A DNA stretch of 63,661 nt. It comes from an uncultured archaeon (GTDB lineage: Archaea > Asgardarchaeota > Lokiarchaeia > Sigyniarchaeales > SOKP01). Below are positions 33,001 through 36,666 of this stretch, piece by piece. The notes under the pieces are model-generated. The model was given only the letters and a program-made list of their open reading frames with translations. It did not search any database and had not been told where the DNA came from. Positions within the stretch are counted from its first letter, which is position 1. Every line of letters starts with the position of its first letter. Location: contig CAYLZE010000015.1 in NCBI GenBank assembly GCA_964388035.1, forward strand, positions 1-63,661. The letters are read 5' to 3'. The translations under genes and the position numbers were made by a program.

Positions 33001-34071
33001 ATGAATCCTAATACAAAAAAAAAAGAAAGCGTAATTCTCTATAAAGACCTCAGTGAAGAAGCTTTAAATGAGGTAGATCAGCGCATTATTTCACTCAAAG
33101 CCTCTAATCCCCCCCATACCTTGAAGGAAATCATATCCACGATTCGAAGTGAGATGAATGTAGTGATCCAGCAACATCACATATATAAAGCTCTAAAAAG
33201 TGCCAAAAATGTTCCCATAAGCGAAATTCCGGTTATTCACGCTCCAGAGGAGATTCAACTTGGTTCTGAAGAGCCAAAACCTTTTTCCATCCAAGAATTG
33301 ATAGAGAGCATCGGATATTACACCCGCTTTATCCAATTCCTTATGAATGACGAGCCTTACATGTTTTATATCATCCGTCTCACGGAAGCAAAAAAGTATG
33401 GTAGCAAAACTTCAGAAAAGTTAAATGAGCAAATGGAACTCTGTCAAAAGCAGGCTTACTCACTAAGAGATAATCTCGTGTTTCCCTATAGTAAGACCAT
33501 TAAAGGGCAAGGGCGTTTATCCAAGAAAGAAAAAGAAGAGGGTCTCACTGAAAAGATCATTGAAAAGCAAATACCAGCAGGGATCAAGCGGGGCTTTATT
33601 AAGGTGGATTCGGATGGAAATTATGTATCGAATAAAGAGGTTCAAGAAGTTAATTTGGAAGGACAACCATTAGAAGTGCATCCCTCTTCGCTTTATTTCA
33701 AGAATTCCCCGAATCACGTAGAATTAGGAAATTCAATCACACTCAATGAAGCTTTGGATCATGATATAAATGCTCAATACATACTCATTCCTGAAGAGGA
33801 GGGGAATGATTCTAAGCTGAAAGCATTAATGCATGAATTGGAAGATGCCGTTCCCCCCAGATTTCTTGCCCTTCCCTTCTGCTATTATCCCAGCACTATC
33901 CCTCAAGATGCTTTTTTACAATTTATCAAAGAAAAGGAGACTGAATACATTTTAATGAACGTGGGTGTCAAAATAAACCCCCAATTAATGGGTTTGGAAG
34001 AAATTCCCGAAGAAATAATCGATTTGGAAGGCGAAGAATTTGAAGATTTAGAACTAGACTTCCATCCATAG
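33001..34071 (+). CDS. Divergent Ku-core-like protein A with N-terminal HTH-like extension and acidic tail
   Basis: The C-terminal two thirds follow the Ku order by eye: IKRGFIKVDSDGNYVSNKEV ~ 'IVKGYE..G.YV....E'; VELGNSITLNEALDHDINAQYILIPEEEG ~ 'IEI.EFV...EID..YF...YYL.P'; KLKALMHELED..FLALPF...DAFLQ ~ 'YALL..AL.....AIA.F...R.HLA.L'. Confidence 0.6.
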   Translation: MNPNTKKKESVILYKDLSEEALNEVDQRIISLKASNPPHTLKEIISTIRSEMNVVIQQHHIYKALKSAKNVPISEIPVIHAPEEIQLGSEEPKPFSIQELIESIGYYTRFIQFLMNDEPYMFYIIRLTEAKKYGSKTSEKLNEQMELCQKQAYSLRDNLVFPYSKTIKGQGRLSKKEKEEGLTEKIIEKQIPAGIKRGFIKVDSDGNYVSNKEVQEVNLEGQPLEVHPSSLYFKNSPNHVELGNSITLNEALDHDINAQYILIPEEEGNDSKLKALMHELEDAVPPRFLALPFCYYPSTIPQDAFLQFIKEKETEYILMNVGVKINPQLMGLEEIPEEIIDLEGEEFEDLELDFHP

Positions 34072-34133
34072 TCTTAATACAAGACTTAATAAAAAAAAAT
34101 CAGTAAAATTTATAAAAATATATGAATTAAAAA

Positions 34134-34874
34134 ATGAGCTTAAAAAATATAGATTTTGAAATTCATCTAACCGGAGAAGATCCCCGCAAAGATACTAAAG
34201 TTCGAGCTTATAGGCGAATGCGTAAGCGAGATAAAATCGTTCAGAGCGAGGAAGGGAAAAAGGTGGAGAATGTGAAAATAGCCGTTTTTACAGCAGGAAA
34301 TCAGCTTATTGCTCAAATTTTGGACGATAAGAATGTTCTAGATGATATTCTAAATAAAGATGATGAGCTTGACCTAGAAATCGCGGGGAAAATAATAACC
34401 AAGACTTCCACTCTTTTAGTTAACTCCAAGAATTACCCTTGCTATAATTTCATGGAATACGAAATTATTCGAAATCGAGAGGGAAAAATCGTGCCTTGCG
34501 AGCAATGTGGGGAGATCTATTGCTCTCATCGGGTAAAAAAACAAACTAAGGAGAATATTAATCAAGATAAAAATCCCGTCCGATGGATCAAGGTAGCGGA
34601 ACTAAACAAGTTAGAAGCCTTGAAAAAATGGTCCTTCAGCGTTTCCTATCAATTAAGACACGTGGATGGTCTCACGTATCAATTTTTATATGATATAGCT
34701 AAAACCTTACAAGAAAAAAATATCATGGTATTGATGGCTCCCATTCAAGACAAAAAACCTCAAAAATTAGTGTTAAGAAATGGCGGGAAACCGTTTTATG
34801 GATGGCTCGAAGGGAGAATTGAGGGAGAAAAATATGCCCTTATTTTACATAGAACTACCTTGAGGTTAGATTAA
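34134..34874 (+). CDS. Divergent Ku-core-like protein B
   Basis: C-terminal FSVSYQLRHVDGLTYQFLYDIAKTLQEKNIMVLM...LVLRNGGKPFYGWLEGR...ALILH resembles Ku 'FD.SYYL.P....Y.LL..AL.E.....I..F.LR.....A.L....L.LH'. Internal CEQCGEIYCSH. Confidence 0.55.
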   Translation: MSLKNIDFEIHLTGEDPRKDTKVRAYRRMRKRDKIVQSEEGKKVENVKIAVFTAGNQLIAQILDDKNVLDDILNKDDELDLEIAGKIITKTSTLLVNSKNYPCYNFMEYEIIRNREGKIVPCEQCGEIYCSHRVKKQTKENINQDKNPVRWIKVAELNKLEALKKWSFSVSYQLRHVDGLTYQFLYDIAKTLQEKNIMVLMAPIQDKKPQKLVLRNGGKPFYGWLEGRIEGEKYALILHRTTLRLD

Positions 34875-34902
34875 AAATTAAAAATTAAGAGAGAAAATTA
34901 AA

Positions 34903-36666
34903 GTGACACTACAAAAAGTCGTGGGAGAAGCCGAAAAAGTATTTCCCCAAGAAATGGACGGATATTTTTTGGGACAAGTTCATAGTGTTCAAGAAAAAAT
35001 TGAGCATCTCGCTAATGATTACAGGATCTCAGTCTTGAAGCGAATGATCCCCTTGAATCACGAGCATCTAGATCCCAAGCATCCCAAATTCCATAAGCTA
35101 CCCGATGATTTAATCGTATCCATAAAGCGGGATGGGGGTTATAATGCTCTTTATTATGATGATCAAACGGAACCTCATTCTCTATTTATAAATCAAGGGG
35201 GACGTGCGATCTATAATTTACCCGTAAATAAAATATTTGAACACGTTCTGGATCAAATTAATGAAAACGTAGAACCCCTCAAAAAGCTTTTAACATCCTT
35301 TAATAAGAAAACAGTTTTTAAAAGCTCGGAAACTATCCATGATCTCATTATTGCAGGAGAAATGTTTGCAAACATCCAAAAGCCGGGAGATAGACCTCGC
35401 GTGTTTGATTATCTTAAACTATTGCGGAATCCTGAAAATAAAAAAGACTTGGAGAACTTGCATTATGAAGTATTTGACGTTCTTTCCATGAATGACGTGG
35501 ATTTGCTAGACCTTTCATATGAATATCGCATTCAGCTTTGTTCCTTCCTCTTTCCTCGAATTAAGGGGAAAGAAAATTTTCCCATTAAAGTCGTAGAATA
35601 TCAAATGAATGTGAAAGCAAGAGATCTACAAGAGTTATATGAGAAATGGGTTGTAAAGGAGCATCACGAAGGTCTGGTAATTCGGACTAAATATAATATG
35701 GCTTACAAGGTAAAACCGCGGTTTGATATTGATGCCGTAATAATCGGATTTTCAGAGATGCTTCAAGAAGATCTAATAGAAGGTAAAGAAGCCATCAGTT
35801 CTATTTTAACGGCAGTCATGCGGAATGATGGAACCTATCAAGAATTAGCACGCGTGGGAGGCGGGCTCACGCAAGTCCAACGCGAACAATTTCACGCTCT
35901 ACTAAAAGATGATATTATTCCCTCCGACTATAAGGCCACCATGCCAGACGGGAGGGCTTATCATTTTGTACGCCCCAAGCAAGTAATTCAGATAATTTAT
36001 TCGGACATTCTTGATGAAACAGCATCGGGACAACCCATAGAGAAGATGGCCTTGCAATTCGATAATGATACATATAAAATTATCCGCAGCGTGCCCTTTG
36101 TCGCTTTGATCTCACCCCGTTATGAAATCTTGCGAACGGAAGTAAATTCTAATCTTTATCCTTCCTTAGAGTTTGCTAATGTGAAAACACCCACTTATTA
36201 TGATGTTAATATCAAGCAAATTACTGATCTTGTTCCAATCCCCACATTTGACCGTCTGAAAGCCGAACAAGAGCTTCCCGAAAGTGAAATTTTTCTAAGA
36301 TTAGTATTTAAAAGCAAATGGGCGGGGGTGGAATCAGTAAAGAAATTCTTGCTTGTTTCGACCAACAAGCACGAGTTAGATCCCACGTATCCGAATTTCC
36401 TTTTATATTACGCTGATTATCAGTATTATCGCTCAGTTCCCTTGTTGCAAGATGTTTATCCCTTTAACTCCTTGGATAAAGCACTTAAACAACTTAACTT
36501 CCTATTTCTACGTCCCGATAATCCTGGAGAGGGCTTTTTAAATACTACAGAAGATGGAATCAAGAGATCAATTATATTGCCTCCACATGATTTCTACCTT
36601 CATTCGGATATAGAAAAGAAGCTCAGTAATTCCTTGGATGAAGTTATTAAAACCAATTTACTTTGA
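34903..36666 (+). CDS. ATP-dependent DNA ligase-like nucleotidyltransferase with extra C-terminal domain
   Basis: Motif I SIKRDG, III IAGEM, IIIa YEVFDVL, IV EGLVIR, V YKVKP..DIDAVIIG, OB-fold ARVGGG, VI SPRYEILR. Confidence 0.88.
   Translation: MTLQKVVGEAEKVFPQEMDGYFLGQVHSVQEKIEHLANDYRISVLKRMIPLNHEHLDPKHPKFHKLPDDLIVSIKRDGGYNALYYDDQTEPHSLFINQGGRAIYNLPVNKIFEHVLDQINENVEPLKKLLTSFNKKTVFKSSETIHDLIIAGEMFANIQKPGDRPRVFDYLKLLRNPENKKDLENLHYEVFDVLSMNDVDLLDLSYEYRIQLCSFLFPRIKGKENFPIKVVEYQMNVKARDLQELYEKWVVKEHHEGLVIRTKYNMAYKVKPRFDIDAVIIGFSEMLQEDLIEGKEAISSILTAVMRNDGTYQELARVGGGLTQVQREQFHALLKDDIIPSDYKATMPDGRAYHFVRPKQVIQIIYSDILDETASGQPIEKMALQFDNDTYKIIRSVPFVALISPRYEILRTEVNSNLYPSLEFANVKTPTYYDVNIKQITDLVPIPTFDRLKAEQELPESEIFLRLVFKSKWAGVESVKKFLLVSTNKHELDPTYPNFLLYYADYQYYRSVPLLQDVYPFNSLDKALKQLNFLFLRPDNPGEGFLNTTEDGIKRSIILPPHDFYLHSDIEKKLSNSLDEVIKTNLL

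Follow-up and report, generated by a model that had tools for sequence, protein, structure and literature searches.

A three-gene unit on contig CAYLZE010000015.1 of an uncultured Sigyniarchaeales archaeon (Asgardarchaeota; Lokiarchaeia) probably encodes a non-homologous end-joining (NHEJ)-like cassette, consisting of a divergent heterodimeric Ku-like pair and an accessory ligase, a reading to which we assign a probability of roughly 65%. The stretch analyzed (hereafter the window, 63,661 nt) carries the three genes, designated here g1, g2, and g3, in the same orientation, with gaps of 62 bp (g1/g2) and 28 bp (g2/g3). The in silico basis of this reading comprises the ligase core of g3, the Ku fold of g1, the strict co-occurrence of the three genes, the interface predicted between g1 and g2, and the fact that canonical Ku is nearly absent from the carriers. 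A first-pass annotation of the window had proposed an NHEJ-like module with a Ku heterodimer, and this proposal was largely borne out for the ligase, the g1 fold, the co-occurrence, and the predicted pair; a Ku fold for g2 is what we infer.

The g3 product has a true ATP-dependent DNA ligase core, with a nucleotidyltransferase domain and an oligonucleotide/oligosaccharide-binding (OB) domain. It exceeded the Pfam cut-offs for both DNA_ligase_A_M (44.9 vs 26.2 bits) and DNA_ligase_A_C (34.2 vs 27.5 bits), with the matches covering the adenylation domain (residues 142–273) and the OB domain (residues 296–373). Nucleotidyltransferase motifs I, III, IIIa, IV, and V are all present, as the first-pass list of ATP-ligase motifs had it, and K75, D77, G78, E153, F191, E256, G257, K269, and K271 were invariant in an alignment of 34 members of the ligase family. 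When the family profile was compared with PDB sequences, it matched the archaeal Lig1 core (7.5e-29), human LIG1 (about 1e-21), LIG4 (2e-16), and the ligase domain of Mycobacterium tuberculosis LigD (2e-9). The protein had been described as devoid of a large N-terminal DNA-binding domain and of LigD polymerase or phosphoesterase modules, and Pfam and NCBIfam scans confirmed this description: the Lig1-type N-terminal DNA-binding domain (PF04675) had no match in the approximately 70 residues preceding motif I, no LigD polymerase or phosphoesterase module was found in g3, and the LigD Prim-Pol domain (PF21686) was not found in the genome. The NCBIfam models for NHEJ ligases and LigD covered the catalytic core only, far below their cut-offs (41 vs 373 bits for LigD). 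Because the same genome encodes a normal Lig1-type ligase (596 aa, with PF04675) on another contig, g3 is considered an accessory second ligase. Furthermore, all members of the g3 family share a C-terminal domain of approximately 100 residues, in which K481, T487, K489, R510, and L514 are invariant in archaea and bacteria; neither this conserved domain nor any other part of the g3 termini had a Pfam match.

These matches also bear on the possibility that the ligase acts on nicks or RNA, as in base-excision-type or RNA repair, with g1 and g2 serving as adaptors for lesions or substrates and having no connection with DNA ends. The g3 protein and 15 of the 34 family members scored on PF09414 (RNA_ligase; 1.2e-5 for g3), and a few members scored on capping-enzyme or PNKP-ligase models. 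However, the DNA-ligase models scored higher, all 34 members had both the OB domain (PF04679) and motif VI, every one of the nearest solved relatives is a DNA ligase, and a Ku-fold partner points to duplex ends. We therefore regard a nick- or RNA-directed function as very improbable.

The g1 protein had no match in Pfam (E up to 1), NCBIfam, or PADLOC, and its profile matched no PDB sequence. An AlphaFold2 model, built without templates from eight homologues, had a mean predicted local distance difference test score (pLDDT) of 54.6, with residues 240–325 at 70–88. When this model was searched against the PDB with Foldseek, the top 50 matches were all Ku chains (E down to 6e-6), among them Ku80, Ku70, M. 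tuberculosis Ku, and Bacillus subtilis Ku; likewise, every cluster retrieved from the ESM Atlas by shape was 100% PF02735, the Ku family. PF02735 itself gave a weak match (E 0.003) in one of 65 g1 homologues. These structural comparisons indicate that g1 is Ku-like by fold, with a core formed by a beta-barrel with a bridge. The first-pass annotation had read the Ku motif order by eye in both g1 and g2. The best local alignments of g1 with Ku, g2 with Ku, and g1 with g2 all overlay one strand-helix motif, the same pattern that had been picked out by eye (Y.L.P/H, then a helix). No match to the accessory domains of Ku70/80 (Ku_N, Ku_C, SAP, and Ku_PK_bind) was found in g1, g2, or the 65 homologues of each. 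At the C-terminus of g1, the tail consensus is acidic, and a D-F pair (D268 and F269 of alignment A4) is kept in at least 90% of 65 archaeal and bacterial sequences.

For g2, scans of the protein against Pfam, NCBIfam, and PADLOC gave no match, 64 homologues likewise had no family match, none of the 65 homologues matched PF02735, and the g2 profile matched no PDB sequence. The products of g1 and g2 had been described as not obviously similar, and shallow profiles indeed detected no similarity between them; only with an enlarged g2 alignment did hhalign align the two (E 0.0016, probability 16%, 67 columns). Their suggested pairing was supported by complex prediction from deep alignments of 65 sequences each, in which the interface score ipSAE was 0.80 (0.80, 0.77, and 0.80 in three runs) and that of the best control was 0.00. 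Of 80 solved complexes, 58 reached this mark, as did 2 of 110 mismatched pairs. The predicted interface comprises 314–339 contacts, at least 68% of which were shared between runs, with a partner pLDDT of at least 77, and the complex score may partly reflect likeness to solved Ku dimers. Under an independent profile alignment, 23 of 30 interface positions of g1 fell on interface positions of g2 (hypergeometric p = 7e-6, which is overstated because interface residues come in runs). A large interface at equivalent positions in both chains is what two like folds would give when paired with pseudo-twofold symmetry, and the profile and model comparisons together suggest that g2 is quite probably a Ku-fold subunit and that g1 and g2 probably encode a very divergent two-part Ku.

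Alternatively, only g1 may be Ku-like, and g2 may be an unrelated but obligate partner, such as an adaptor, an XRCC4/XLF-like bridge, or an end-processing enzyme, that couples the g1 core to the ligase, with end joining retained as the function. This would accord with the failure to obtain a g2 fold, with a g1-g2 profile probability of 16%, and with six invariant polar residues of g2 (D76, E78, H176, E226, R228, and H239) that could form an active site. However, an interface of more than 300 contacts at equivalent aligned positions in both chains is the pattern of a pseudo-symmetric dimer, and no g2 member matched any enzyme family, including the LigD phosphoesterase, which makes an unrelated g2 unlikely. 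An ESM Atlas feature search returned GNAT or Duc1 clusters for two g2 proteins, neither of which has a model in the Atlas; the shared-feature counts were low, and these candidates were rejected as chance.

In a scan of one genome per species, the trio occurred at 72 loci, nearly all bacterial, in about ten phyla: Planctomycetota, Bacteroidota, Myxococcota, Thermodesulfobacteriota, Actinomycetota, Verrucomicrobiota, Lentisphaerota, Bacillota, Chloroflexota, Gemmatimonadota, and Pseudomonadota. The first-pass annotation had mentioned similar triplets in some bacteria; the co-occurrence of the three genes is far beyond chance. The order g1-g2-ligase or, in some Bacteroidota, ligase-g1-g2 was found in essentially all loci with enough flanking sequence. 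No recurrent fourth gene appeared in a Pfam tally of 63 co-oriented downstream neighbors or in all-against-all clustering of neighbors. Within the phylum of the window, 4 of 201 genomes encode g2 (1 of 40 within its family), each carrier having the full trio. Close relatives of g2 numbered 16 in a set of 5.8 billion proteins, all of them Asgard-type, whereas a profile search of 1.84 billion representatives recovered a family of 639 clusters at 50% identity, 459 of them at E 1e-10 or better. In the g2 tree, the Asgard long form, represented by the window and five others, formed a clade with strong support and a long stem, separate from the 68 bacterial rows; the window g2 branches first within this clade, and bacterial g2 clusters largely by phylum. 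Because the tree is unrooted, it does not indicate the direction of any transfer.

Canonical Ku (PF02735) was absent from this 96.7%-complete genome in a six-frame search and was above the cut-off in only 3 of the 47 other genomes with the trio, vs 42 of 81 sampled Bacillota, a comparison that is not phylum-matched. The near-absence of canonical Ku from the carriers fits functional substitution by the cassette. The distribution also bears on another explanation, that the trio is a conflict or mobile-element module, that is, a Gam-like end-capping and sealing device working for or against an element and not in chromosomal break repair. Its patchy occurrence across phyla could be read in this way, as could a VWA-MoxR-small protein-ABC ATPase cluster abutting the ligase in four Asgard loci, in which the small protein has a weak likeness to an ABC-3C conflict-system domain (E 0.021), a reverse transcriptase gene near the trio in a further Asgard locus, and one trio-bearing contig in IMG/VR. 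However, that contig is the only one among 2.9 million viral contigs, the trio was on none of 72,556 plasmids, and g1, g2, and g3 had no match in PADLOC-DB 2.0 at E up to 1; a mobile-element or defense role is therefore disfavored, including the directed-against-mobile-elements version raised in the first-pass annotation. The genes around the trio are housekeeping or metabolic ones that vary from locus to locus, no neighbor recurs, g2 follows bacterial phyla to a large extent, and the scarcity of canonical Ku suggests that a housekeeping function was replaced. We consider a conflict module improbable.

Several results weigh against the end-joining reading. No significant Ku sequence similarity was found by Pfam for the g1 or g2 protein of the window, and hhalign comparisons with a 30-sequence Ku profile were not significant (probability of at most 0.6% for g1 and 0.1–1.8% for g2), using deep g1 and g2 profiles as well as bacterial-only subsets and global mode. 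With a HMMER Ku model, g1 and g2 scored no better than decoy neighbors (Mann-Whitney p 0.87 and 0.29, respectively), a result that is uninformative and is not evidence against a Ku fold. The overall confidence of the g1 model is low, and its TM-scores to Ku are approximately 0.3; the monomer model of g2, built from a 16-sequence alignment, had a pLDDT of 37 and was unusable, and its Foldseek search returned nothing below E 0.68. The complex prediction shows contacts, not a closed ring. Most of the genomes underlying the Ku-absence comparison, which mixes phyla, are metagenome-assembled, and the metabolic flanks in the window offer no hint of function.

If the trio is an end-joining cassette, g1 and g2, as highly divergent subunits that both have a Ku fold, would pair into an intertwined heterodimer with pseudo-twofold symmetry that binds double-strand DNA ends, and the accessory ligase g3 would be brought to the bound ends and would seal them. 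Recruitment would probably proceed through the family-specific C-terminal domain of the ligase and the conserved acidic tail of g1; by analogy, the tail may dock onto that domain, as the C-terminus of mycobacterial Ku recruits LigD (PMC9638933). Because the cassette has no polymerase or phosphoesterase, it would join clean or compatible ends or borrow end-processing enzymes of the host. Beyond the g2 fold, the closure of the g1:g2 ring around DNA, the binding of DNA ends, the way in which the ligase is recruited, and the role in the cell are parts of this scheme that we infer.

Prokaryotic two-component NHEJ uses a Ku homodimer and LigD, as in M. tuberculosis and B. subtilis, and some archaea have split Ku, ligase, polymerase, and phosphoesterase genes. 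The cassette resembles Ku-LigD NHEJ in encoding a putative Ku-fold end binder beside a dedicated ATP-dependent ligase in a compact operon of patchy distribution, and the predicted logic, in which a ring on a DNA end recruits the ligase, is the same. It differs in having two unlike subunits, neither of which reaches the PF02735 gathering score, and in its ligase, which, unlike LigD, has no polymerase or phosphoesterase module, has its own conserved C-terminal domain, and has a core closer to Lig1/Lig4-type ligases. Phage Mu Gam is a very divergent, phage-encoded Ku-fold homodimer that binds DNA ends and has no linked ligase; the cassette shares the extreme divergence of the fold but has a linked ligase and is almost never on viral contigs. 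Compared with eukaryotic Ku70/Ku80, the cassette lacks the von Willebrand factor A (vWA) N-terminal, SAP, and Ku80 C-terminal domains (g1 and g2 homologues are 200–356 aa), and unlike DNA ligase IV, its ligase has no BRCT domain or XRCC4-type partner. The Ku3-Ku4 pair of Sinorhizobium meliloti, which works with LigD4, is a proposed bacterial Ku heterodimer inferred from genetics (PMC6379672). As proposed for the cassette, two different Ku genes lie in an operon, and both are needed in one pathway, for which a eukaryote-like heterodimer was proposed. However, Ku3 and Ku4 are ordinary, sequence-recognizable Ku proteins that accompany LigD, whereas the cassette subunits cannot be recognized from their sequences and are accompanied by a different ligase family, in many phyla and in archaea.

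A literature search found no description of a g1-g2-ligase cassette. It differs from the closest systems in its Ku-unrecognizable subunits, in a ligase family without polymerase or phosphoesterase, and in its occurrence in many bacterial phyla and some Asgard archaea. NHEJ based on a Ku homodimer and LigD has been reported in about one-third of bacteria and in very few archaea, and the same 2025 survey of Ku evolution lists only 19 archaeal Ku sequences, leaves Asgard archaea unmentioned, and dates the Ku70/Ku80 duplication to early eukaryotes (PMC11936186). If the end-joining reading is true, hundreds of species counted as NHEJ-less would have a hidden end-joining system, built of a heterodimeric, sequence-unrecognizable Ku pair and a different ligase family. 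The reading of Ku distribution and evolution would then change, with a second, independent Ku heterodimerization outside eukaryotes. Asgard archaea would gain an additional DNA-repair option, and a compact three-gene module would be available for testing and possibly for genome engineering.

The first-pass annotation had also seen a relevance to the origin of Ku70/80. On the most far-reaching reading, the Asgard long-form cassette would be an ancient archaeal two-subunit Ku lineage instead of a recent import, and eukaryotic Ku70/Ku80 would descend from such a pre-existing prokaryotic heterodimer and not from a duplication in early eukaryotes. The separate long-stem clade, a Cys/His insert in g2, and Mre11-Rad50 and Dna2-like helicase neighbors in some genomes can be cited in favor of this. 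However, the cassette is rare in the Asgard phylum, which speaks against a direct contribution to the origin of eukaryotes, and it is structurally no closer to Ku70/80 than to bacterial Ku; the relevance is therefore unsupported, and we consider such a descent highly doubtful.

The features of the locus are listed in Table 1. As the first-pass annotation had stated, the trio is a compact unit with unrelated metabolic flanks, which open reading frame (ORF) calls and neighbor annotation confirmed. Genes for a B12-binding protein, MeaB, and a major facilitator superfamily transporter lie on the 5' side, and genes for a 3-hydroxyacyl-CoA dehydrogenase, an alpha/beta hydrolase, and a URO-D protein lie on the opposite strand on the 3' side. 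The trio does not form a compositional island, its GC content (0.36) being the same as that of the surroundings.

Table 1. Genes and predicted domains of the putative end-joining cassette, in window coordinates
Feature	Coordinates	Strand	Remarks
g1	33001..34071	+	356 aa; Ku-like subunit A; homologues 5' of g2 and ligase in at least 64 loci
g1 N-terminal extension, residues 1–85	33001..33255	+	two predicted helices; no Pfam match
g1 Ku-core fold region, residues 102–334	33304..34002	+	
g1 acidic C-terminal tail, near-invariant D-F (D353, F354)	34003..34068	+	alignment conservation
g2	34134..34874	+	246 aa; partner subunit B; probably a second Ku-like paralogue
g2 Cys/His cluster (C103, C122, C125, C130, H132)	34440..34529	+	insert specific to Asgard long form
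g3	34903..36666	+	587 aa, GTG start; stand-alone ATP-dependent DNA ligase; Pfam and NCBIfam matches
g3 nucleotidyltransferase domain, residues 70–273, adenylation lysine K75	35110..35721	+	PF01068 and PF09414 ranges
g3 OB-fold domain, residues 296–373	35788..36021	+	PF04679, 3.4e-8
g3 conserved C-terminal domain, about residues 455–560	36265..36582	+	invariant residues; no Pfam match

Two forms of the cassette occur in Asgard genomes, the long form of the window and a short, bacterial-like form (L012:5685-8533; L119 and L120), in which g1 is approximately 207 aa, g2 approximately 235 aa without the Cys/His insert, and the ligase approximately 500 aa. The five residues of the insert are invariant in the 16 Asgard homologues, whereas bacterial g2 and the short Asgard form lack them; to judge from their CxxC...CxH pattern, they may bind zinc. 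The window g1 has an N-terminal extension of about 66–85 residues, with AlphaFold2 helices at residues 19–34 and 41–66 (pLDDT 50–69), whereas other Asgard copies start near residue 67 without it. The extension had no Pfam match and no similarity to the HTH_24 gene located 5' of g1 in L011; it may represent either a fused module for DNA binding or regulation or a start called too far upstream.

Long-form Asgard ligases have an insertion of approximately 25 residues between motifs I and III and another of 14 residues between R411 and K428, in the motif VI region (window 36100-36200; residues about 400–432), where the bacterial members read R-D/E-D-K (alignment A6, columns 430–460). Some Asgard ligases (P0024, P0026, and P0028) end in an acidic, D/L-rich tail, '...DLDLD..DF.DL' (alignment A6, columns 640–693), which resembles the conserved g1 tail and is not present in the window ligase. 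From this sequence resemblance, the acidic tails of g1 and of these ligases may have the same binding partner.

At four Asgard loci (L001:10731-16750, L007:10744-15612, L010:3203-7831, and L011:5809-9065), the ligase is followed, convergently, by a conserved cluster of genes for a VWA protein of approximately 850 aa, a MoxR-type AAA_3 ATPase, an approximately 170-aa protein with a weak match to the ABC-3C conflict-system domain CTD1 (E 0.021), and an SMC_N/AAA_23 ABC ATPase of approximately 840 aa. At another Asgard locus (L004:1-6812), the trio is divergent from genes for a 1501-aa SF1 (AAA_11/AAA_12) helicase, an Mre11-type phosphoesterase, and a Rad50-like ATPase, and the reverse transcriptase gene lies approximately 3 kb downstream. 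Neither the VWA-MoxR cluster nor the helicase-Mre11-Rad50 neighbors are present in the window.

A few bacterial loci (L073:32-4033, L084:4160-5890, L086:2887-6489, and L075:6546-9734) contain long trio ORFs, with g1 of 1333 and 576 aa, g2 of 1200 aa, and a ligase of 1062 aa by simple ORF calls; these could be domain fusions or over-extended starts. A primase-polymerase of the archaeo-eukaryotic primase (AEP) type comes after the ligase in a few loci. In one bacterial locus (L014:3235-4470), such an enzyme (PF22548 AEP-TOTE, 1.2e-6) is encoded directly 3' of the ligase, and three weaker AEP relatives occur in the flanks of two other loci (L023 and L085). The AEP-type polymerase is an optional partner, outside the core of the cassette.

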